From: a virus
Lineage: Duplodnaviria > Caudoviricetes
Virus record (IMG/VR): IMGVR_UViG_638276462_000001
Span: 6,655-70,654 of that record
Direction: 5' to 3' (one strand)
DNA length: 64,000 nt
Shown here: positions 6,499 to 29,768 of the stretch, in pieces
How positions within the stretch are numbered: the stretch's first letter is position 1
Layout of the letters: each line of letters starts with the position of its first letter
The notes under the pieces: model-generated
Databases searched by the model: none
What the model was told of the DNA's origin: nothing
Seen by the model: the letters and a program-made list of their open reading frames with translations, nothing else
Program-made: the position numbers and the translations under genes

Positions 6499-7362
6499 AT
6501 GCCTGCCGGAATCATCGCCACCGTCGACAACGGGTTCGCCACGCTCGACTTCGTGGACAAGAGCCTGCGTGGCCCCGCCCTGGCCGAACTGGTCGAAATC
6601 GGCGGGCCTGCCAGCATCGAGACCATCACCCGCGATGGCCCGCGCCGCAAGTACCGCGTGCCCGAGGGCAATGCCCAGGCGGCTGGGCTGCTCGACGGTG
6701 ACGAGGTGGGCGACAAGTGGTCTGCCGGGCGCGACACCGGGGCGGCGGCAGCCACCAAGGCCAGCGACCCGAACGTCAACGCTGGGGCCGACAATGCCAA
6801 TTGGCATACCCCGGTGGACCAGTACACCAGCGCCAACGCATACGTCGGCAAGGTGCCGAACGCCACGGTGCTGCACAACCGGGGCCAGGTGTACACCGGG
6901 GACGCCGACAGCGTGGGCGGCGACCTGGCGCACCCGCCGACGCACGCCGAGGTCATCCAGAACGTCAAGGACGCCAAGAACCCGCCGACCGAGGGCTTCG
7001 CGGCACCGATGGCCCGCGCGGCTGTGGTGGCGGGCAGCCTGGCCGAGCAGGACAGCGCCCTGGGCAGCGACCCCGGCGGCTGGGGTCCACAGCCCGGCGA
7101 CGGCGGCGATACCGGCACCGAGGCGGTGGAAGCGCCCGCAGAGGCCGACGCTTCGGCCCCCAGCGAGCCGCAGGGCGGCGAAACGCCGGACCCCGAGGTA
7201 ACCACACTGGCCGAGCCCCAGGAATACCCTGACGGCGAGCCCACGACGGAGTGGACCCGCAAGCAGCTGGACGCCTACGCGGCAGCTGTGAAGGGCCTGG
7301 ACACCACCAAGCTCGACAGTAAGGCGGCTGTGCTGGCCGCGATCAACGCACCCAAGGAGTAG
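6499..7362 (+). CDS. Virion-associated protein with C-terminal HeH/Rho_N-like helical domain
   Basis: SD AAGGAG; C-terminal YPDGEPTTEWTRKQLDAYA...KAAVLAAI. Confidence 0.6.
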   Translation: MPAGIIATVDNGFATLDFVDKSLRGPALAELVEIGGPASIETITRDGPRRKYRVPEGNAQAAGLLDGDEVGDKWSAGRDTGAAAATKASDPNVNAGADNANWHTPVDQYTSANAYVGKVPNATVLHNRGQVYTGDADSVGGDLAHPPTHAEVIQNVKDAKNPPTEGFAAPMARAAVVAGSLAEQDSALGSDPGGWGPQPGDGGDTGTEAVEAPAEADASAPSEPQGGETPDPEVTTLAEPQEYPDGEPTTEWTRKQLDAYAAAVKGLDTTKLDSKAAVLAAINAPKE

Positions 7363-8826: not shown

Positions 8827-9633
8827 ATGCCTGGCATCCAGCCCGTCAAGGGCACGCGGCTCCGCGCCACGAAGATCAACGGCTGCGGTATGCCGATTGC
8901 CGGTCCCCGCAACCGCCTCGTCACGTCCGGCTACGTCAGCCTGACCCTTACCGCAGTGATGCGGGAGGCCCAGGACTTGACGCAGGACAACGCCGAGGGC
9001 AAGGAATGCTTCACCGACCGGACGCCGCCCGAGCGCCGCTGGTACACCCCGGCCCTGGAGCTGTGCAACGTGAACACCGGTCTGCTGACCATGTTCACCG
9101 GCTGGGAGTCGGTGCTTGACGCCAACGACCTGCCCGTTGGCTACCGCGACCAGAAGGAAATCGAGACCGACTACGGCATCGCGCTGGAGCTGTGGACGGC
9201 CGGTAAGTCCGACGAGGACTGCGACGACATCCCCACCAGTGACGCGGTGTTCGCCGCTGCCGGGTCGGGCCGGAGCTACGGCTACTTCCTGTTCGGCGGC
9301 ACCGAGTGGACCCCTGGCGACATCACCATCGGTGCCACGGTGTCGACCTTCACCCTGACCGGCCGCACCATCGCGCTGCCGTACTGGGGCAAGGGTCCGT
9401 ACAACGTCCAGGAGGACGAGAACGGCGACCCCGGCCGTCTGGTGACGCCCACCAGCAAGAAGGAGCACCTGACCGTGTTCCGCACCATGGTGCCGCCGCC
9501 GGAGCCGACGCCGGGCACCGAGCCCGTGGCGCTGGCCACCAGCTCGATCTTCGTTGCGCCGGATTACTACTACGGAGGCCCGGCCAGCGAGCCCGCCGCC
9601 GCCACCGCACCGGACCAGCCCGCGATCCCGTAA
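8827..9633 (+). CDS. Major tail (tube) protein
   Basis: SD AGGAGG; KGTRLRATKINGCG...NAEGKEC...LELCNVN...WGKGPYNV; followed by terminator. Confidence 0.85.
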   Translation: MPGIQPVKGTRLRATKINGCGMPIAGPRNRLVTSGYVSLTLTAVMREAQDLTQDNAEGKECFTDRTPPERRWYTPALELCNVNTGLLTMFTGWESVLDANDLPVGYRDQKEIETDYGIALELWTAGKSDEDCDDIPTSDAVFAAAGSGRSYGYFLFGGTEWTPGDITIGATVSTFTLTGRTIALPYWGKGPYNVQEDENGDPGRLVTPTSKKEHLTVFRTMVPPPEPTPGTEPVALATSSIFVAPDYYYGGPASEPAAATAPDQPAIP

Positions 9634-12326: not shown

Positions 12327-12887
12327 ATGACCACGTTCGGATCGCAAGGCAAGATCGTCGCGCGGGCAGACGCTGCACCGCCGGAGGAGCAGCTGGTGCC
12401 ACCGACCGACTACTGCGCACCGGACGACCTGGCACCCCAGGGCGACGACGCCGCGCCCGACGTGGAGCAGGTGCTGGCCGAGGTCGAGAAGGCCAATGAG
12501 GTCATCGACGCGCCCGCCGCTGCCGAGCCCGAGCCGGTCGAGGAGGTCGGCAACGCGGTGGTGCTGGCGCAGCGCTTCGACGTGACCACCACCGGGGAGA
12601 CCTGGGACTACGACTATCTGGAGTTCGAAGGCGACAAGCTGGGCATCCGGCTGCCGACCCGCCAGGCGCTGGCGGCGTTCTCGCTGGCGTCCAGCAAGTA
12701 CGTGTCCATGGGCGTGAAGAACGACCTAACGGGCCTGTTCATTGCCCGGCACCTGAGCCCCGAAAGCTACGGCCGGGTGTTCTCCCGCCTGATGGACCCC
12801 GACGACGCCGCCTACGACGTGGACACCGTGGGCGAACTGTTCAATGCAATCGTTACCGCCAGCATCGAGGCAGACGAGCAGGAATAG
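12327..12887 (+). CDS. Tail assembly chaperone (G-like, no frameshift extension)
   Basis: Directly before tape measure gene; SD GGGAGG. Confidence 0.75.
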   Translation: MTTFGSQGKIVARADAAPPEEQLVPPTDYCAPDDLAPQGDDAAPDVEQVLAEVEKANEVIDAPAAAEPEPVEEVGNAVVLAQRFDVTTTGETWDYDYLEFEGDKLGIRLPTRQALAAFSLASSKYVSMGVKNDLTGLFIARHLSPESYGRVFSRLMDPDDAAYDVDTVGELFNAIVTASIEADEQE

Positions 12888-12912: not shown

Positions 12913-15900
12913 GTGACCGATGTCGGCAAGATCAGTCTTGGCGTAGAGCTACACGCCGACGACCTGGCAAACCGGCTCGGTGAAGCCGTACGGCGGGCAG
13001 TGCTGCCCGCGCTCGACAAGCTGAACCGCAAGCTCAACGAGGTACAGCGAGAGTACCGAAACACGGGCAACGCGGCCGAGCGCAGCGCCGACAAGCAGGT
13101 GCGCCAGCTGCGCCGCGTGGCAGTCGAGGCCACCGCCACCACCGCCGCGCTCAACGCCATGAACGCCGCCTACGGGCGCACCAACAGCGGGCCACGGCTG
13201 CCCCGCCCGGCCGACACCGAACGCGCCCGCCGGTCGACGGACGGGCTGGCCAACAGCACCCGCAGCGTGTCCGAGGCACAGCGCGAGCTGAACGAGGCCA
13301 TCAACATCTTCGGGCGGCGCAGCCCCGTGGTGGAGGCGGCACAGCGCCGCCTGGCCCGCGCCGAGGCCACCCATACCGCCGAGCTGGTGCGTGCCGCTGC
13401 CCGTAGCCGCGCCAGCACCGACAGCCAGGTCAACGATTACGAGCGCCTGGCGCGCGAGGCTGAACGGTCGGCAGCCCGGCAGGCAGCGGCGGCGCGTGCG
13501 GCCGGTGGCGGCGGTGGCCGAGGCGGTGGAGGCGGGGGCCGTCGCGGCGGCGTGATGGGGTTCCTCACCGGCCCCGTGGGGCTGAACTCCATCGCACTGG
13601 GCGCGTCGGCGCTGCCAGCGGTGGCAACGGGCGTTGTCAACATCGTCGGGGCGGTGCAGCAGCTGGCCCAGGCGGGCGCGGTGCTGCCCGGTGTGTTCGC
13701 TGGCGCGGCGTCGTCCATCGGCATCGCGGTGGTGGGCTTCAAGGGCATGGGCGATGCCGTCAAGGCGCTCATGGACGCCGCCGACGACCCGGCCAAGCTG
13801 GAGGAGGCGAACAAGCAGCTGGAGAAGATGGCTCCGGCTGCCGCTGCGGTGGCGCGCGAGGTGGCCAAGCTGGCTGCCCCGAACGGGCCACTGCGCCAGT
13901 TCCAGAAGGACATCGCTCAGCCGATGTTCGAGGGCATCGACCAGCAGCTGGACGACTTCGCAAACAAGGCGCTGCCGCGCGTCAAGCCCGGCGCGCAGAA
14001 GATCGCCGGGGCCTGGAACAACACGCTCAGCGAGGCGCTGCGTGTCGGCGGCAGCGACAAGACGCTGGGCTTCATCGACCGCATTTTCGGCAACACGGCC
14101 GAGGGCCAGAACCGTGCGAACAAGGCCATCGCGCCGCTGACCAGTGCGCTGGGCCAGCTGGCCGCAACCGGCAGTGACTTCCTGCCGCGCCTGGGCGATG
14201 CCATTACCAGCGTGAGCGAGCGGCTGGACCGCTTCATCAGCAAGAACGCGGCGAACGGCAACCTGTTCCGGTGGATTGACGAGGGCCTGAACGGTATGCG
14301 GGCCTTCGGGAACGCGGTGCTCAACGTCTTCAAGATCATCACCAACCTGACCAAGGCGGCGGGCGCGCTCGACGGCAGCCTGTCCGGCGACGGCGGGTTC
14401 CTGGGCTGGCTGGAGCGCAGCACCGGGGCACTGGAGAAGCTGACCGGCAGCGCCGCCGGTCAGGCCCGGCTCACGGCGTTCTTCAAGGACGGCCGGGAGG
14501 ACTTGGCCCGGTGGGGCGACCTGCTCAAGGAAATCTGGCCCGCCATCCGCGAGGTGATCAAGGGCTTCCAGGCATGGGGCGACATCATGTTCCCCATCAT
14601 CAAGGCGGTCGGCAGCCTGGCCGGATCGCTGGGCGAGGTGCCGGGCCTGCTCCAGGCCATCCTGGTGGGGTTCTTGGCGTGGCGCACCATCGGCGGCATC
14701 GTCGGCGGTATCACCGGCAAGATCAAGGGCATGAACACCGCCGCAGCGGCGGGCGGTGGTGCGGCCGGTGGCCGGTTCGGCAAGGGGCAGAGCGCCCTGC
14801 TGGGTGGCAGCCTGCTGCTCAGCGGCACCACCATGCAGCAGAACGCGGGCACCAGCACCACCAGCGGCGTGCTCGGGGCCTTGCAGACCATCGGCGGCGG
14901 CGCGGTGCTGGGCGGCACCATCGGCAGCGTAATTCCCGGCGTCGGCACGGGCATCGGGGCGCTGGTGGGCGGTGGCCTGGGCGCGGCGCTGGCCGGGTAC
15001 AACGCGCTGGTCAACCAGAACAAGATCGCCACCGAGGCGGCGGCTGCCGCTGCCGAGAAGTGGGCAGCCACCAACGAGCGCAGCCACCAGGCCATGCTGC
15101 TGAACAGCCAGGCCATCAAGTCGATGAACGACGCGCTGGCCGAGAGCGGTGGCCAGATCGACGCCGCCACGCTGGCGGCGGTGGGCGAGCAGGTCAGCGC
15201 CATCCCCGAGAAGCTGGCCGGGGCCTACGACGAAAACACGCTCAAGGGCATTGCCACCGCCCTGGGCGACGTGGGTATGTCGACGGAGCAGATGGCTGCC
15301 ACCATCACCGGCAGTCAGGGCCAGTTCGACGCGCTGATCGCACGGCTCCAGGGCATGGGTCCGGCCGGGCAGATCGCCGCGACACAGCTGGCCTCCATCC
15401 GTGACAACACGCTGGGCGCTGCCCAGAACGCCACCGTGGCCGCGCCGCTGCTCCAGCAGCTGGCCGACAACTTCGGCGGCGTGGCTGCGGCCGGTGTCGC
15501 GGTGGAGAACGCATTCAGCGCGGTGCCAAAGGACGTGCCGATCAACATCAACATGCCCGGCGGGCAGGCGGTGTTCGACATCCTCAAGGACATCGGCGCG
15601 CAGATTCAGACGAACAAGGACGGGACGATCAACGTCACCGCCCCGCTGGCCCCGGCGGTGCTGGACCAGCTGCGTGCGCTGGGCATCCAGGTGCAGCAGA
15701 ACAAGGACGGCACCATCAATGTCCAGGTGGACCCGGCCAAGTACGCCGACACCCTGGCGAAGCTGGGCACCTTGGGCTCCATGCTGCGCGATCTGCACGG
15801 CCAGTCCCTGGGCCTGCCGCCAGTGCCCGGCCCGGCGAACCCGAACACGCAGGCGGCTGACCCGTTCCAGATTCCGCGCCCGCCTGGCGGTGCCGACGGC

Positions 15901-18900
15901 ATGGTGGTGCCGGGCTACGCGCCCGGCCACGACATCGTGAACGCGGTGCTGGCCCCCGGCGAGGGCGTGCTGATCCCCGAGGCGGTGCGCGGCATCGGTG
16001 GCCCGGCCGGGGTGTACGCGCTCAACAGCCGGTTCCGCAGTGGGCTGAGCAAGCGCTTCTACGCCGACGGCGGCGTGCACACCGGTAGCGGGGCGCTGCC
16101 CGGCCCGGCCGGTTCCGAGACAGAGCTGGGCGTGCTCATCCAGATTCGTGACCTGCTGGCAGGCAAGGGCGGCATCGGTGCGGTGGCCCAGACCGCCCAG
16201 GCCACCGACACCATCGCCAAGGCCAGCGCGGGCACCACCGGCCAGACCATGGGTCCGTTCGGTACGCCGATCAAGGCCCGCAACCGTGGCTACGAGGCAG
16301 CCGCTGCGGCCATCCAGGCGCTCGGTGGCGACCCTGAGAAGTGGATCGGTGCTGATCCCACTACCTACGTCGCCCCGACCACCAGCGGGGCGTACAGCGG
16401 CACTGCGGGCCTGCCTGGGCTGCCGGGCACCGTCGACATTGCCGCGCTCCAGAAGTTCGCCATGACCGGCAACACTGCCGACCTGCCGCCGGGCATCGGA
16501 CTGAACGACCCGGTGGTCACAGCCATCACGGGCGCTCGGAACAAGAAGAAGGGCCTGGGCGACCAGGCCATCAGCGACCTGATCGGCCAGGCGCTGGCCC
16601 CCGGTGGCTTCACCGGCACGCTCGACAGCGACAACACCAGCCTCGTCAAGGCGCTGGAGCGGCTGCGCACCAAGGGCGTGAAGGTGCCCACGGGCGGCAC
16701 GGCAGCGGTGGCCGGATCCACCGGTGTGCCCATGTACGGCATCCCCGGCGCGGCGCTGGACCCGATCAGCGCCTACGCCCAGGCCCACAGCGGCGGTCAG
16801 TACAGCTGGGGCGCGAGCGACCTGGCCAGTGGCCTGTCCGACTGCTCGGGTGCGGTGTCCGACCTGGTGGAAATCATCACGCAGGGCCAGGCCACCAGCA
16901 AGCGCCTGTTCTCCACAGCCGACGCGGGCAGTGTGCTCCAGTCGCTGGGCGCGGTGTCCGGCGCGGTGCCTGGTGCCCTCCAGATCGGCTGGTCGGCCGA
17001 ACACATGCGGGCCACGCTGCCCAACGGCGTGAACTTCGAGTCCGGCGGCGGCACCGGCCAGGGCGCGACCTACGGCGGCAACGCCAAGGGCGCGGCGGGC
17101 CTGCCGAACATCATGTCGCTGCCGGTCAACGGCGTGCCGCTGGGCGCGGGCATGTCCGGCGCATTGCCGGGCGGCGGCGCGGCCGGTGGCGGCACCCCGG
17201 TGTTCGTCACGAACTGGCCTGGCGGTGGCCAGGTGCCACCGGGCGTGAACCAGCTGCTCGGGGGCCTCACGCAGGGCGGGGGCCAGGCGGCGCAGAACGT
17301 GCTCGGTGACGTGATGGGTGCGGTGGCCGGTGTCGGGCAGGAGGGCTGGGCCACCAAGGGCGCGAGCTATGCCCAGCTGAACACGTTGGTCCAGGAGGGC
17401 AACCCGCTGGCGCTGGCCAAGGCATTCGGCCTCAACGTGGAGGACTTCACCCGCCAGGGCGGCGCGGGCACCAACGTAGAGAAGAACGACCAGGCGTACG
17501 ACGCCAGTGGGCGGCTGTTCTCGGACACGTCGGCCCTGTTCGATCGCACACTGACCAGCCTGAACGCGCAGCTCCAGGCCATGCGCGAGCAGATGGTGGA
17601 CGTAATCGAGCAGGTCAGCCAGAAGCTCAACGACGAGGCCCTGGAGCCGGTCGTGAAGGCCGGTGTACAGAACGCGCTGGAGGGCTTGAAGGACAGCGTG
17701 TCCAACGCCATTGGCACCGCTATGGGCAACGCAGCCGCGCCGCCCATTGCCGACGCGGTGAGTAGTGCGGTGTCCAGCCTGCCCATCGACAACACGGGCA
17801 GCGGCAACGTCGGCGGCAACCTGGCCGGGGCGGCGACCGGTGTGCTCGGTATGGCAGGCGGCGGGCCTGTCAGCGGCGGCATCGCCGGTAAGGACAGCGT
17901 GCCCGCGCTGCTGATGCCCGGCGAGTTCGTGCTGAACACGATGGACGTGGCCAAGATGGGCGGCACCCACGGCGTGGAGGCTGCCCGGCGCAAGGGCTTC
18001 CGGCACTTCGCCACGGGCGGCGGCGTCATCGGTAACGACACCGTGGGCGCGGACTTCTTCGGCGTGTCCGAGGTGCCCATTATCGGGGCCATTGTGAACC
18101 TGCTGGTGCGGGTATTGCTCCAGGTCATTGGTGTGCAAATTGAAGTGCGCGACACCATGAACGAAATGACCAATGACTTCCGGCAATTCCGTGGTGACGC
18201 ATTTAAGGCGTTCGACGCTCAGGGCCGGTTGCTGAATGACACCAGCGGTCTTATCGAGCGCACGCAGTCGAGCGAGGAAACTGCCGCCGAGGAGCGCATT
18301 CGCATTCTCAAGATCGTTATCCAGGCGCTCATCAAGTACATCATCGAGAAGGTGATTGTGCCCATTACCAAGGCGGTGGCGAACGCGGCAATCCAGGCCG
18401 GTGCCAGCGCTGCGGGCGCGGCGGTGAATACGCAGGCACCCGGTGCCGGTGGAATTGTCAGCTCGCTTATTTCCAGCGCGGGCCAGGCCGGTGTCGATAT
18501 TGCGGCCGAGGTCGGTACGGACTTCGCGCTGGCCATCAGCGAAACGCTGATCGACATGGTGGGCGACCAGCTCCAGTCGTCGTTCCCCGACCTGGTGGCC
18601 GGGGTGTTCGGCGGCGGCGCGCTGGCCAGCATCTTCGACCCGGCGGGCGGCATCCTGGGCACGATCATCGGTGGCCTGCTGGGCAGCCTCACGGCCATCT
18701 TCGGCGGGCTGTTCGGCGGGGCCAGCACGCTGATCCCCGGCCAGTCGTTCGATGAGGGCGGGCTGGCCTACGGCAAGGGCTACCTGCCCAAGGCCACCGC
18801 CGAGCCGGAGCTGGTGCTGAGCCCGACCGAGACCAGCCTGTTCTCCCGGTTCGTCGCGGCGCTGGAGCGCGGCGGGTTCGGTGGCGGTGGCAGTCGAACC

Positions 18901-18984
18901 GTCCATGCTCCCATTACTGTGATCGGTGGCGGCACCGAGACCGCAGACGTGATTGAGCAGCGCCTGCTCAAGCTGATGCCGTAG
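12913..18984 (+). CDS. Tape measure protein
   Basis: 2023 aa, Ala/Gly-rich; repeated GG..G...D.V.A.L.PGE motifs; DCSG...H peptidase-like motif; GTG 6 nt after TAGCCT. Confidence 0.95.
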   Translation: MTDVGKISLGVELHADDLANRLGEAVRRAVLPALDKLNRKLNEVQREYRNTGNAAERSADKQVRQLRRVAVEATATTAALNAMNAAYGRTNSGPRLPRPADTERARRSTDGLANSTRSVSEAQRELNEAINIFGRRSPVVEAAQRRLARAEATHTAELVRAAARSRASTDSQVNDYERLAREAERSAARQAAAARAAGGGGGRGGGGGGRRGGVMGFLTGPVGLNSIALGASALPAVATGVVNIVGAVQQLAQAGAVLPGVFAGAASSIGIAVVGFKGMGDAVKALMDAADDPAKLEEANKQLEKMAPAAAAVAREVAKLAAPNGPLRQFQKDIAQPMFEGIDQQLDDFANKALPRVKPGAQKIAGAWNNTLSEALRVGGSDKTLGFIDRIFGNTAEGQNRANKAIAPLTSALGQLAATGSDFLPRLGDAITSVSERLDRFISKNAANGNLFRWIDEGLNGMRAFGNAVLNVFKIITNLTKAAGALDGSLSGDGGFLGWLERSTGALEKLTGSAAGQARLTAFFKDGREDLARWGDLLKEIWPAIREVIKGFQAWGDIMFPIIKAVGSLAGSLGEVPGLLQAILVGFLAWRTIGGIVGGITGKIKGMNTAAAAGGGAAGGRFGKGQSALLGGSLLLSGTTMQQNAGTSTTSGVLGALQTIGGGAVLGGTIGSVIPGVGTGIGALVGGGLGAALAGYNALVNQNKIATEAAAAAAEKWAATNERSHQAMLLNSQAIKSMNDALAESGGQIDAATLAAVGEQVSAIPEKLAGAYDENTLKGIATALGDVGMSTEQMAATITGSQGQFDALIARLQGMGPAGQIAATQLASIRDNTLGAAQNATVAAPLLQQLADNFGGVAAAGVAVENAFSAVPKDVPININMPGGQAVFDILKDIGAQIQTNKDGTINVTAPLAPAVLDQLRALGIQVQQNKDGTINVQVDPAKYADTLAKLGTLGSMLRDLHGQSLGLPPVPGPANPNTQAADPFQIPRPPGGADGMVVPGYAPGHDIVNAVLAPGEGVLIPEAVRGIGGPAGVYALNSRFRSGLSKRFYADGGVHTGSGALPGPAGSETELGVLIQIRDLLAGKGGIGAVAQTAQATDTIAKASAGTTGQTMGPFGTPIKARNRGYEAAAAAIQALGGDPEKWIGADPTTYVAPTTSGAYSGTAGLPGLPGTVDIAALQKFAMTGNTADLPPGIGLNDPVVTAITGARNKKKGLGDQAISDLIGQALAPGGFTGTLDSDNTSLVKALERLRTKGVKVPTGGTAAVAGSTGVPMYGIPGAALDPISAYAQAHSGGQYSWGASDLASGLSDCSGAVSDLVEIITQGQATSKRLFSTADAGSVLQSLGAVSGAVPGALQIGWSAEHMRATLPNGVNFESGGGTGQGATYGGNAKGAAGLPNIMSLPVNGVPLGAGMSGALPGGGAAGGGTPVFVTNWPGGGQVPPGVNQLLGGLTQGGGQAAQNVLGDVMGAVAGVGQEGWATKGASYAQLNTLVQEGNPLALAKAFGLNVEDFTRQGGAGTNVEKNDQAYDASGRLFSDTSALFDRTLTSLNAQLQAMREQMVDVIEQVSQKLNDEALEPVVKAGVQNALEGLKDSVSNAIGTAMGNAAAPPIADAVSSAVSSLPIDNTGSGNVGGNLAGAATGVLGMAGGGPVSGGIAGKDSVPALLMPGEFVLNTMDVAKMGGTHGVEAARRKGFRHFATGGGVIGNDTVGADFFGVSEVPIIGAIVNLLVRVLLQVIGVQIEVRDTMNEMTNDFRQFRGDAFKAFDAQGRLLNDTSGLIERTQSSEETAAEERIRILKIVIQALIKYIIEKVIVPITKAVANAAIQAGASAAGAAVNTQAPGAGGIVSSLISSAGQAGVDIAAEVGTDFALAISETLIDMVGDQLQSSFPDLVAGVFGGGALASIFDPAGGILGTIIGGLLGSLTAIFGGLFGGASTLIPGQSFDEGGLAYGKGYLPKATAEPELVLSPTETSLFSRFVAALERGGFGGGGSRTVHAPITVIGGGTETADVIEQRLLKLMP

Positions 18985-27061: not shown

Positions 27062-27709
27062 GTGACCAACGCCAGCGTCTGCGTATCTGAGCACCTGGTC
27101 GTCGGTGACGACGGCAAGCTACGGCTTGCCCCGTGGTCGGTGCCCCGGCTGGTGGCCGACGAGATTGCTCACAGCGGTGCCGACACCACCAAGCTGCTGG
27201 AGACCAGCACGCTGCCCGGCCGCTTGCTGATCGACAAGCCCGGCGTCATGTGGACCAACCTCACCCCGGTGGACCACATGGTGCGCGTGATGGTTACCCG
27301 GCGGTGGAAGCGGTGGATCACCAGCAACCCGAACGCGGTGCAGTTCCGTGACCGGTGGTCGTCGGCCATCACGCCCGTGGGCAGCGCCGACGTACTGCCC
27401 GCCGAGCCGGTGGTCAGCGGCATCTTCAACAGCCAGTGCGGCAGCGCGGGCGACCTTGGATCCAACACGGTGGCCGAGCCGGTGCCGGGCAAGTTCTGGG
27501 CCTGGTGGGGCACCAATACCAGCGAGGAGTGGCTGGGGCCGGTGCAGCCCGGCGAGACGCTGCGCGTGGCGTACCGCTGCTACGTGTGGACGCCGCCGCC
27601 CTTCTCGGACAACGCGAACAAGAACGCGCCCGCCCACGAGGCCGAGGCCGGGTTCGCGCGTATCCAGCTGATGGCATTTCCGCAGCAGGGCAAGGTCGTG
27701 ACCGGATGA
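27062..27709 (+). CDS. Minor tail/baseplate protein, paralog 1 of 3
   Basis: C..EHL...PW and WTNLTP..MVRVMVTR; GTG 6 nt after TAAGCT. Confidence 0.7.
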   Translation: MTNASVCVSEHLVVGDDGKLRLAPWSVPRLVADEIAHSGADTTKLLETSTLPGRLLIDKPGVMWTNLTPVDHMVRVMVTRRWKRWITSNPNAVQFRDRWSSAITPVGSADVLPAEPVVSGIFNSQCGSAGDLGSNTVAEPVPGKFWAWWGTNTSEEWLGPVQPGETLRVAYRCYVWTPPPFSDNANKNAPAHEAEAGFARIQLMAFPQQGKVVTG

Positions 27710-28311
27710 GCACCAGCCTGAAAATCTGCACCGCTGAGTACATGATCAGCGACGTTCGCGGCATCGGTGTGCGCCAGACCTGGCTCCCGCACGTGGTGGC
27801 CGAGCAGTTCCTGGAGTCCACCAAGGACGGCGAAATCAAGCTGGCCCCTGACCCGGTGACCATGATCGACGGCGACCTGACCTGGTTCAACAACAGCCCC
27901 GATCCCGTGAAGGTGATGGTGATGGTGCACCGCGCACCGCGCAGCATCGTGGCGCAGAACCCGGCCACCGTGGTCATCCACGACGCCTGGAGCCACCAGG
28001 TCGGCAAGAGCCCCAGCGCCGACTACCCCAGCGTCATCCAGGACACGTTCGGCGGGCGGCTCCAGGTGGACCGCGCCAGCGTGGCCAAAGACCTGCTCCA
28101 GTTCGGCCGGTACTTTCTCGACGGCGACGACAGCCAGACCTACGTCAACCTCGGGGTAGTGCCTGCCAAGCAGTCGTTCCACTTCCGCTACCTGGCCGCT
28201 GTCCAGACACCGGGCGTCTGGACGCAGCCCAGCGAGTTCGAGCCGCGCTGGGAGGCGTATGCGCGGTGGACGCGGCTGGTGGCCATCGGCAGCCCGGTGG
28301 GGGCGCTGTGA
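27706..28311 (+). CDS. Minor tail/baseplate protein, paralog 2 of 3
   Basis: ATGA overlap; WFNNSP..KVMVMVHR. Confidence 0.7.
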   Translation: MSTSLKICTAEYMISDVRGIGVRQTWLPHVVAEQFLESTKDGEIKLAPDPVTMIDGDLTWFNNSPDPVKVMVMVHRAPRSIVAQNPATVVIHDAWSHQVGKSPSADYPSVIQDTFGGRLQVDRASVAKDLLQFGRYFLDGDDSQTYVNLGVVPAKQSFHFRYLAAVQTPGVWTQPSEFEPRWEAYARWTRLVAIGSPVGAL

Positions 28312-29060
28312 GCGACTGCGTAGACGAGAACCACCTGCAAGAGCTGGACGGCGTGATCAGTCCACAGCCGTGGATGCAGTGGCGGCACATCGGCGGCGTG
28401 GAGGCCCCCAGCAAGACGGGCAACTACGGCGTCACGCTCACCAGCGGGGGCCTGGGAACAGTCGACGTGTTCGGCACCCTGGGCAGCCTGTTCGGCAGCC
28501 TGTTCGGGTCCATCCCGCTGCTGTTTGGCAAGTCGAGCCCGCTGGCCGGGCTGCTGGCGAGTGCCAGCGCGGGCGGTAACAAGAACGATCTGCTGCACCG
28601 GCTCCAGTACAGCTGGACCAACGGCAGCCCCGTCGCTCAGGACGTGTACGGGCTCATCACGCGCGGCGGCGCACGGGTCAGCTTGCAGCCCCGCAGCCGT
28701 GGCGGGCTGGTGCTGCGCAGCGGTTACGCCAAGCACGCCAGCGACCCCGGCCCGCTGGCCGACAGCTCCATGTTCGGCGTCGGTGCCGACCTGGGGCGCG
28801 GCGGCACACTGAGCCTGGGCACCACGTTCGGCATCGCGGAGCAGCGGATGAACAGCTGCACCATCCCGCTGGCACCGGAGCGCACCGGCTGGCTGCGGCT
28901 GGCACCCGGTGAATCCATCACCGCCGCGCTGGAGCTGCGCTTCATCAGCGAGTTCTGGGAGAACACCACCATCGACGGCGGCGACACCGGCAGCGAAAGC
29001 AGCTACACCACGGGCGCGACCCGCCTTGATCTGTTCGCGGTGCCGGTAATCTCGGGCTGA
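28308..29060 (+). CDS. Minor tail/baseplate protein, paralog 3 of 3
   Basis: GTGA overlap; WTNGSP..DVYGLITR. Confidence 0.7.
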   Translation: MSDCVDENHLQELDGVISPQPWMQWRHIGGVEAPSKTGNYGVTLTSGGLGTVDVFGTLGSLFGSLFGSIPLLFGKSSPLAGLLASASAGGNKNDLLHRLQYSWTNGSPVAQDVYGLITRGGARVSLQPRSRGGLVLRSGYAKHASDPGPLADSSMFGVGADLGRGGTLSLGTTFGIAEQRMNSCTIPLAPERTGWLRLAPGESITAALELRFISEFWENTTIDGGDTGSESSYTTGATRLDLFAVPVISG

Positions 29061-29088: not shown

Positions 29089-29457
29089 ATGTATGACCCG
29101 CCACCTGGCTACGAAGATTGCGAGGCCGACGCCGACGCGCACCCGACGCCGCCAGGCTGGCCGTACCGCGAGCTGGAGGTGGAAGGGGTCGGCACGCTGC
29201 ACGCCCGGCGTCCGCTGCCCAATGCGATCCCGGCGCTGGCCGGGGCGGCGCGGAGCAAGATCAGCCCCGAGAGCCGTATCGACCACCTGGACATCTTCGT
29301 CCAGAACCACCTGGCCGACGGCGAGTTCGAGCAGCTGCTGGCCAGCATGATGGACCCCGACCAGGACATGCCACCCGACACCATGCTGCGCGTGAGCCGC
29401 GCGATTGCCACGGCGGGCAGTGCGCGCCCTACACGGCGGTCATCAACCTCGCGTTGA
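29089..29457 (+). CDS. Second tail assembly chaperone paralog (G')
   Basis: Aligns by eye with 12327..12887 (LE.EG..L..R.P...A..A...F...HL...MDPD...DT...AI.TA). Confidence 0.75.
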   Translation: MYDPPPGYEDCEADADAHPTPPGWPYRELEVEGVGTLHARRPLPNAIPALAGAARSKISPESRIDHLDIFVQNHLADGEFEQLLASMMDPDQDMPPDTMLRVSRAIATAGSARPTRRSSTSR

Positions 29458-29768
29458 TGGCCGCGCACAACTGGCGGGCGCTGCGCACCAAGGCCCTGGA
29501 GAACGGGCACAGCGACATGATGGCCTGGCCGAACATGCACGTGGTGCTCGACGCGATGGAGCAGCTGGGCCTGGAGTCGGCGGTGGCCGGTGCCAAGACG
29601 CAGGTCGAGGCCAAGACCGAGATGACCCGCTACTACGACAAGCTCTACAAGCCCGACATCACCGCCATGGTGATCAACGGCGACGGGTACCTGCCGCCCC
29701 CGCCGGGGTTCAGCGACGAGGAGATGGAAGCGTCGTTCGATGCGTTCTTGTCGAGCGGGACGAGGTAG
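29427..29768 (+). CDS. T-like ORF in -1 frame; probable G'T frameshift extension (alternative start ATG 29457)
   Basis: CCCTAC junction, codon-usage switch, 12-bp hairpin at 29436-29464. Confidence 0.65.
   Translation, partial: PYTAVINLALMAAHNWRALRTKALENGHSDMMAWPNMHVVLDAMEQLGLESAVAGAKTQVEAKTEMTRYYDKLYKPDITAMVINGDGYLPPPPGFSDEEMEASFDAFLSSGTR

Follow-up and report, generated by a model that had tools for sequence, protein, structure and literature searches.

A putative −1 frameshift in a displaced tail assembly chaperone gene of a cluster B mycobacteriophage

Does a pair of overlapping open reading frames (ORFs), far downstream of the tape measure gene of a mycobacteriophage, encode two proteins or a short and a long version of one? 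The pair lies in a stretch of 64,000 nucleotides (nt) from the IMG/VR record IMGVR_UViG_638276462_000001 (positions 6,655 to 70,654, hereafter the window), which comes from a cluster B (B4-like) mycobacteriophage whose own genome is that virus record, of 70,654 bp. The upstream ORF belongs to a family of tail assembly chaperones and the downstream ORF, which is in the −1 frame, encodes a domain named DUF7240. The obvious precedent is the lambda-type gpG/gpGT frameshift (Levin 1993; Xu, Hendrix and Duda 2004, 2013, 2014, all as cited in the part of Atkins et al. 2016, PMC5009743, that treats it). In the lambda model outlined in that part the ratio is 30:1, and G attaches to the tape measure protein and T to the major tail protein. 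From the comparisons presented below we consider it very likely that ORF 29089-29457 and the DUF7240 ORF ending at 29768 are one recoded gene, expressed by means of a −1 frameshift.

Two overlapping reading frames and their domains

The elements of the proposed recoded gene are the following.

29089..29457, plus strand: distal TAC_16 paralog P0002 in frame 0, the short product of 122 amino acids (aa)
29425..29433, plus strand: proposed −1 slip site, CGC CCT ACA, at which the tRNA-Pro would move from CCT (29428-29430) to CCC (29427-29429), the next codon being TAC (29430-29432)
29430..29768, plus strand: −1 frame segment, made up of a 9-codon linker (29430-29456), the DUF7240 domain (29457-29765) and a stop; the C-terminal 112 aa of the predicted fusion
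29436..29464, plus strand: predicted stimulatory hairpin with a 12-bp stem and a 5-nt loop (5' arm 29436-29447, loop 29448-29452, 3' arm 29453-29464)

Residues 1-114 of P0002 match the Pfam family PF23781 (Phage_TAC_16) from position 1 to position 114 of its 114 positions (E 2.5e-46; 156.7 bits, the cut-off being 27). The 70,654-bp genome contains exactly two matches to this family, the other being P0001, the product of the gene just before the tape measure gene. BLASTP aligns the two paralogs with 29 identities in 95 positions (E 5e-10). An earlier note on this DNA, made from its letters alone, had aligned them by hand with about 25 identities in 82 positions; the computed alignment bears this out, including the shared HL, MDPD, DT and AI.TA, and both proteins score above the PF23781 cut-off.

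The −1 frame is open from 29118 to 29768, overlapping ORF 29089-29457, and contains an ATG at 29457. Subtracting 29089 from 29457 leaves a remainder of 2 on division by 3, which is the −1 relation, and the frame 0 stop and this ATG form a TGATG overlap at 29455-29459. The protein read from the downstream ORF, P0003, matches PF23888 (DUF7240) with E 4.6e-44 and 149.4 bits (cut-off 27). A single profile of 233 positions, phrog_941, covers both products: P0002 matches its positions 1-117 and P0003 its positions 127-227. The nine-position gap between these matches corresponds to the nine −1 codons that separate the proposed slip from the ATG. A slip at the Pro codon would give a fusion of 114 + 112 = 226 aa. 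The earlier note had arrived at about the same length, and both the overlapping −1 ORF and the codons CGC CCT ACA on which it relied are present, the latter at 29425-29433.

Single-ORF homologs cross the junction at the predicted point

If the two ORFs specify one protein, relatives in which they are joined would be informative. The longer homologs of P0003 include P0004 and P0006, each a single ORF that reads through Arg-Pro-Tyr into the linker and DUF7240. The frameshift junction inferred earlier from the window is thereby supported, for these natural proteins pass from Arg-Pro to Tyr at the predicted point. In a cultured phage, Mao1, such a protein is gp33, whose single ORF encodes 232 aa and includes both Pfam domains. 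Longer proteins were also sought with a profile, which yielded 25 clusters of 210-244 aa, some of them Mycolicibacterium prophage copies; all 25 have both domains, and the junction motif is present in its strict form in 21 and as a close variant in 4. When 1.84 billion representatives were searched with a profile and no filter, 148 matches were obtained: 41 fused proteins, a lower bound because the strict motif was required, 75 short proteins, and 32 others longer than 130 aa. By eye these 32 are mostly fused with a variant junction, and they include one chimera and one unrelated repeat protein. A further protein, P0005 (187 aa), joins an unrelated GTPase-like N-terminus to the last ~60 residues of DUF7240; it is probably an assembly chimera from a public metagenome and was left out of account.

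At the DNA level, fused genes differ from split ones by one extra C in the C run (CGC CCC TAC), or have AGG CCC TAC. The one-C difference places the change of frame between Pro and Tyr. A tree of the linker plus DUF7240 requires 3 changes of the fused label, at least 2 of them forced by well-supported branches, and fused forms lie scattered among split ones. There has thus been more than one exchange between fusion and recoding. We also observed that in fused genes (Mao1 gp33 and loci L086, L090, L091 and L058) a +1 shift at CCC_C would enter the old frame 0 tail, which stops after 3 to 8 codons (TSR or TSL followed by a stop). It is pure speculation that fused genes could yield a short, chaperone-only form through this opposite slip.

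The proposed slip site is conserved in position

Two sets of IMG/VR loci were assembled. The first, based on P0004, comprises 26 loci. The second comprises 56 loci from a scan with patterns drawn from the DUF7240 alignment and is independent of the slip site, its contigs being partly common to the first set. In this second set 52 loci are split and 4 are fused in frame, and the −1 relation holds in all 52 split loci. The 56 junctions are distributed as follows.

Split, −1, junction CGCCCTAC: 51 loci
Split, −1, junction CGC CCT TTC, CGCCCTTT(C), with a canonical C_CCU_UUC: 1 locus (L093)
Fused, junction CGC CCC TAC: 3 loci
Fused, junction AGG CCC TAC: 1 locus

Nine named phages were also inspected: Rosebush (B2), Reprobate (B5), Prann (B1), Daisy (B3), Taptic, the M. 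abscessus prophage prophiT36-1, the Gordonia phage Wooper, the Nocardia phage NTR1, and Mao1. Eight are split, with the downstream ORF in the −1 frame in every case, and seven of these carry the octamer CGCCCTAC; Mao1 is fused. At the same codon NTR1 has CGC CCT TTT, which is the canonical C_CCU_UUU heptamer. Overlaps of the ATGA or TGATG type force the −1 relation trivially. The 17-nt gap in Reprobate and the 40-nt overlap in Rosebush do not, and yet both phages have it.

The six nucleotides CGC CCT show zero entropy in 33 sequences, and neighbouring four-fold sites range from 0.8 to 1.75 bits. The third base of CGC is free of constraint both from the Arg codon and from any translated −1 codon; it is also the first base of the CCC landing codon. 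Four environmental contigs, relatives from public sequencing runs with a word share of 0.41 or less, bridge the junction. Each has 4 to 31 differences from the window, none of those listed, all but 3 of them, falling in 29374-29500, and this interval contains no indel.

The earlier note had called the site non-canonical, and so it is: at C_CCT_ACA only the first tRNA can re-pair, and CGCCCTAC is found in 51 of the 52 split loci. C_CCU is an instance of the minimal Z_ZZN tetranucleotide at which −1 shifting is described in the corresponding part of Atkins et al. (2016, PMC5009743). We infer that the tRNA-Pro moves from wobble pairing on CCU to a full match on CCC, and likewise the ribosomal site at which it does so. 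If CCU is the A-site codon, the 5-nt distance from CCU to the stem is the spacing of canonical signals.

The −1 frame is under selection from the slip site onward

Judged from the aligned sequences, the −1 frame is under purifying selection from the slip site onward. In 52 distinct 153-nt junction segments it reads Y-x-A-V-I-x-L from this point, with Tyr, Ala and Val each present in 52 of 52 and Ile and Leu each in 51. The Ala codon is GCG in 24 segments and GCC in 28, and the same base change replaces Arg with Pro in frame 0; four different codons are used for the Leu. Positions Y1, A3, V4 and L7 of the linker are also invariant in 29 protein-aligned sequences. The frame 0 tail in the same 52 segments has Arg, Val, Leu, Gln, Pro, Ser, Trp or a stop as its second codon and Arg or Pro as its third, and it ends 2, 4, 7, 9 or 10 codons past Pro. 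Upstream of the slip, the third positions of frame 0 are the most variable (1.09 bits vs 0.47 and 0.34), and at the site this property passes to the third positions of the −1 frame. The codon pattern remarked upon earlier in the window is as described: from TAC through ATG, each of the ten −1 codons has G or C as its last base, and 4 of the 8 frame 0 tail codons end in A or T (ACA, TCA, TCA and CGT).

The Met at 29457 is not conserved; relatives have Ile, Thr, Leu, Ala or Val in its place. Within the first 14 codons that follow the slip in the −1 frame, neither Taptic nor Daisy offers an ATG, GTG or TTG, and the starts annotated for these two phages leave out 21 to 29 conserved codons of the DUF7240 domain. 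The locus does not resemble an ordinary stop-start pair, since the Met is unconserved and the linker upstream of it is conserved. Annotated starts 21 to 29 codons inside the conserved DUF7240 region are found in Daisy gp40, Taptic gp35 and NTR1 Orf56. They were placed there because no start codon exists further upstream, and are probably annotation artefacts of a missed frameshift.

A covarying hairpin follows the slip site

The 12-bp hairpin at 29436-29464, which the earlier note described as burying the stop and the alternative ATG, is present and covaries. Its 12 pairs, one of them G-U, begin 5 nt past CCT and enclose both TGA (29455-29457) and ATG (29457-29459). The minimum free energy of 29425-29475 is −23.8 kcal/mol (z = −3.26), and 2 of 200 shuffled sequences fold as well. 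When the stem was imposed on 23 distinct sequences, 96.7% of cells were paired, and both partners had changed in 6 of the 12 pairs (22 cells). Not one of these values was attained in 500 shuffles, and in slid controls pairing did not exceed 61%. In 13 sequences pair 14-38 is G-C and in the other 10 it is C-G, mismatches being absent. Since both of its positions are synonymous third positions of Ala codons in the −1 frame, selection on the protein cannot explain this swap. Rfam returned only a chance match to SNORD17 (E 0.55).

A stem of at least 9 pairs with −15 kcal/mol or better, starting 3 to 7 nt past CCT, is found in 51 of the 52 split loci. The slip motif and the hairpin, which had first been noticed in a single sequence, are thus each conserved in 51 of the 52 split loci. 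The sole split locus that lacks the stem is L093, the one with the canonical heptamer. NTR1, which also has a canonical heptamer, likewise has no stem (−5.1 kcal/mol). Folding energies of the four fused forms are −19.8, −17.5, −14.5 and −7.9 kcal/mol, and 37 distinct split junctions average −19.9. These contrasts in folding rest on two canonical-heptamer and four fused cases only. The absence of a hairpin from both NTR1 (L035, about 1466-1475; C_CCT_TTT) and L093 (about 1496-1504; C_CCT_TTC), two cases, suggests tentatively that the better the slip site is, the less a stimulator is needed.

The paralog before the tape measure gene and the genomic setting

To place the recoded pair in the tail module, three other genes must be considered.

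8827..9633, plus strand: major tail protein gene, 268 aa, with homologs so named in Vincenzo, Orion, Thonko and others
12327..12887, plus strand: pre-tape-measure tail assembly chaperone paralog P0001, 186 aa, with no frameshift extension
12913..18984, plus strand: tape measure protein gene, 2023 aa, assigned from the ORF layout and from the syntenic Prince gene, which is annotated tape measure protein

P0001 matches PF23781 with E 5.5e-41 and 139.5 bits (cut-off 27) and phrog_1118, 'tail assembly chaperone', with E 3.1e-80. No extension (T) ORF follows: past its stop (12887) the +1 frame is open only to 12903 and the −1 frame only to 12916, and the frame of the tape measure gene comes next. 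The earlier observation that the chaperone gene in the canonical place lacks a T ORF is therefore correct. The recoded pair begins 16.2 kb after this paralog, beyond minor tail genes and not between the major tail and tape measure genes. The same two-paralog layout, a TAC_16 gene before the tape measure gene and a second one 15 to 17 kb downstream, was present in all seven genomes checked (that of the window, Mao1, Wooper, three fused-type records and the canonical-heptamer record). In fused-type phages no short distal product is possible, yet the first paralog is kept, and for this reason we read it as a chaperone-only partner. The proposal of the earlier note that G and GT are split across two loci holds in part. 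The second paralog does lie 16.2 kb away. The distal locus would make a short form of its own, and the G role of the first paralog is one that we infer.

The first paralog has an N-terminal extension of ~85 aa (residues 1-85, 12327-12580), acidic and rich in Ala, Pro and Glu, which the distal paralog lacks. Mao1 gp22 and Wooper gp25 are similar, their match to the TAC_16 profile beginning only at about residue 40-55. Many homologs of the major tail protein have ~355-380 aa, compared with ~268 aa here, and the tube protein of some relatives therefore carries a C-terminal extension of ~90-100 aa.

A 2.1-kb region around the recoded pair has matches in 353 phage records, of which 352 are Mycobacterium phages. 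The nearest is Adawi, with 95.7% identity; Nigel, Prince and further cluster B phages come next. A DUF7240 homolog is encoded in 515 phage records. Directly after the pair come a tail-fibre-like gene (phrog_892) and a minor tail protein gene (phrog_1304). Directly upstream of it are three tandem paralogs (27062-27709, 27706-28311 and 28266-29060), all matching phrog_282, the third with a sub-threshold match to DUF7172 as well. Prince has the same trio of ~200-aa genes ahead of its pair, and two such phrog_282-type genes are visible in the shorter stretches examined of Reprobate, Prann and Wooper.

Proposed mechanism

We propose that most ribosomes would translate frame 0 to the TGA at 29455-29457 and release the 122-aa, TAC_16-only chaperone. 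Some would slip back by one base at C_CCU, the tRNA-Pro moving from CCU at 29428-29430 to CCC at 29427-29429, and would then read TAC in the −1 frame and continue to the end of a 226-aa protein composed of TAC_16, linker and DUF7240. The 12-bp hairpin, 5 nt downstream, would stimulate the slip. If lambda gpG and gpGT are taken as the model, the TAC_16 part may hold the tape measure protein while DUF7240 recruits another component of the tail, most plausibly the major tail protein, which is accordingly named here as a candidate partner for the T-like domain. The chaperone-only form would come from the paralog that immediately precedes the tape measure gene. Both the T-like role of DUF7240 and the division of roles between two loci are putative. 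On one reading the distal locus, with its own short product of 122 aa and its predicted long one, is by itself a complete G/GT-like unit.

A broader proposal may be put forward tentatively, at somewhat less than even odds in our estimation. In cluster B and its Gordonia, Nocardia and prophage relatives, the supposedly universal G/GT system of siphoviruses would not be absent; it would have been dismantled and rearranged, the near paralog acting as G and the displaced paralog as GT through a one-tRNA slip on C_CCU with a hairpin, and lineages would switch repeatedly among recoded, canonical-heptamer (without hairpin) and fused forms.

Alternative explanations

Several observations weigh against the interpretation of the pair as a recoded, G/GT-like gene. 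C_CCU_ACA is not a canonical X_XXY_YYZ heptamer and the A-site tRNA cannot re-pair on it. The octamer CGCCCTAC is not over-represented, with 3 copies in the window compared with 2.67 expected; its significance derives from conservation at the same position in relatives and not from rarity. Most split loci, including that of the window, have TTG ATG or GTG ATG at the start of the domain together with the TGATG overlap, and a separate DUF7240 product may arise there by re-initiation. Tests on substitutions in the linker separate the frames weakly, and the codon-by-codon counts tell more: the single-base variants comprise 13 that are silent in the −1 frame alone, 6 silent in frame 0 alone, 2 silent in both frames and 9 silent in neither, and the pairwise nonsynonymous fractions are 0.62 (−1) and 0.69 (frame 0). 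This weakness is expected, because the nine-codon overlap must also form the stem. Two of the four fused forms still fold well (−19.8 and −17.5 kcal/mol), and the stem may owe something to protein coding. The pair sits among distal minor tail and fibre genes, away from the tape measure gene. Comparison of DUF7240 with known T domains through Pfam, PDB sequence profiles and the Atlas revealed no homology. The PDB sequence-profile search with the alignment of fused homologs gave 0 matches at E up to 1, and the Atlas search gave its own DUF7240 cluster and two unconfirmed sub-threshold leads, Phage_Gp15 (0.87) and DUF5361 (0.83). Finally, in the literature on cluster B we found no proteomic or ribosome profiling data on the predicted long product.

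How should these observations be balanced? It might be supposed that the ORFs are two separately translated genes, ribosomes re-initiating at the ATG at 29457 within TGATG to make a free DUF7240 protein of 103 aa and no fusion. Two genes are annotated in every GenBank record inspected, the window and most split loci have an ATG, or a TTG or GTG, at the start of the domain, and a one-base overlap of stop and start is a common arrangement for translational coupling. We nevertheless regard this explanation as very improbable, because it leaves too much unaccounted for. At the protein level the nine −1 codons ahead of the ATG are conserved (all 52 distinct segments have the Y, the A and the V), whereas the Met itself is not. 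Taptic and Daisy have no suitable start codon, and the starts annotated for them sacrifice 21 to 29 conserved codons; in Reprobate-type loci frame 0 stops one codon past the slip site, 17 nt before the ATG. The ATG lies within the covarying stem, and the invariant octamer would have no reason to exist. The finding that fused and split genes differ by one C in a short C run raises a different suspicion, namely that the split state represents a fixed frameshift mutation in a decaying pseudogene, a sequencing error or slippage by RNA polymerase. We give this hardly any credence. The split state is found in 51 loci with 31 distinct 48-nt junctions, from independent phages and metagenomes, with both frames intact and conserved, and the four environmental contigs agree with it and contain no indel. 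A run of three Cs is, moreover, far shorter than the homopolymers known to support transcriptional slippage.

The explanation that deserves most attention accepts the frameshift and differs as to its purpose: the distal locus may encode a specialised chaperone for another part of the tail, such as the fibre or the distal minor tail proteins, the near paralog alone serving the tape measure protein. The locus does follow the three phrog_282 paralogs and precede the phrog_892 and phrog_1304 genes, a paralog already occupies the canonical position, and DUF7240 has no detectable similarity to anything of known function in Pfam, PDB profiles or the Atlas. The presence of two paralogs in all seven genomes fits this role and a role in the tail tube alike. 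Nothing direct opposes it; against it stands the architecture of a short chaperone and a long one with an extension, which is known from assembly of the tape measure and tube (in the part of Atkins et al. 2016 on such systems). We judge a specialised role to be unlikely, yet far from negligible.

Comparison with known systems

The locus resembles lambda gpG/gpGT in that a chaperone ORF, here in a tail assembly chaperone family, overlaps a −1 ORF within the tail module of a siphovirus, and in that a short product is, by prediction, accompanied by a rarer one with a C-terminal extension. It differs in several respects. The recoded gene of lambda is directly upstream of the tape measure gene, whereas here it has been displaced past that gene and a frameshift-free second paralog occupies the canonical place. 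A minimal Z_ZZN site (C_CCU) followed by a strong covarying hairpin takes the place of an X_XXY_YYZ heptamer, and the family alternates between the frameshift and an in-frame fusion.

Bacillus subtilis cdd is said to use a single-tRNA −1 frameshift at CGA_AAG. Such shifting at Z_ZZN tetranucleotides, for example A_AAG, is described in the relevant part of Atkins et al. (2016, PMC5009743). As in those cases, only one tRNA would re-pair here (CCU to CCC) and an additional stimulator is present; unlike them, the present site has a Pro codon, belongs to a high-GC actinophage, and has a downstream hairpin as its stimulator. No described use of C_CCU_AC was found in the literature searched.

Recoding is not the only way to obtain two chaperones. 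The tail assembly chaperones of T4-like phages have reportedly been proposed, by Vladimirov, Gautam and Davidson in 2022, to operate without a frameshift. The fused relatives studied here (Mao1, with gp22 and gp33, and records G001-G003) are comparable, for they encode chaperone-only and extended proteins separately and without recoding. The protein family is different from that of the T4-like phages, and here both strategies occur among close relatives. The two domains of the predicted fusion recur, in the same order and with the same Arg-Pro-Tyr junction, in Mao1 gp33 and in the 'DUF7240 domain-containing proteins' of Mycolicibacterium prophages, and gp33 has the same genome position as the distal locus. 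Unlike the pair in the window, these proteins come from single ORFs (CGC CCC TAC), from which only the long form is expected.

Annotation and significance

In the Prince record, which has a 2024-series accession, genes 36 and 37, syntenic with the pair, and gene 24, just before the tape measure gene, are all 'hypothetical protein', and there is no joined coding sequence (CDS) for a chaperone. Both ORFs are likewise hypothetical in GenBank records up to 2025, and only that of Prann names the upstream ORF 'tail assembly chaperone'. Two B1 genome announcements (PMC12352053, PMC10793310) report, in the portions concerned with this point, no tail assembly chaperone frameshift; a 2022 announcement (PMC9584339) lists a tail assembly chaperone without the word 'frameshift'. 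According to a passage in the PRFect paper (PMC10885494), 1203 of 3679 SEA-PHAGES genomes have no annotated frameshift. Our searches found no literature on Phage_TAC_16 or DUF7240, it being possible that the supplementary lists of predicted frameshifts from PRFect include the pair, and none on a frameshift and the tape measure gene of Rosebush.

Cluster B phages, which have been thought to be frameshift-free, very probably do have a tail-chaperone slip. As cluster B ranks among the largest groups of actinophages sequenced, this has practical consequences. Should the slip prove real, a joined CDS would have to be entered in hundreds of records, and two products now labelled 'hypothetical proteins' would acquire a role. 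The C_CCU site is out of reach of predictors whose training data are the chaperone frameshifts annotated at present; it would give them a natural and well-supported case of a minimal Z_ZZN site accompanied by a covarying stimulator. The occurrence of recoded, canonical-heptamer and fused versions in one family makes the question of the ratio of short to long product directly testable. If it is true that lineages have switched among these forms, they constitute a natural experiment on whether the G:GT ratio must be set by recoding.

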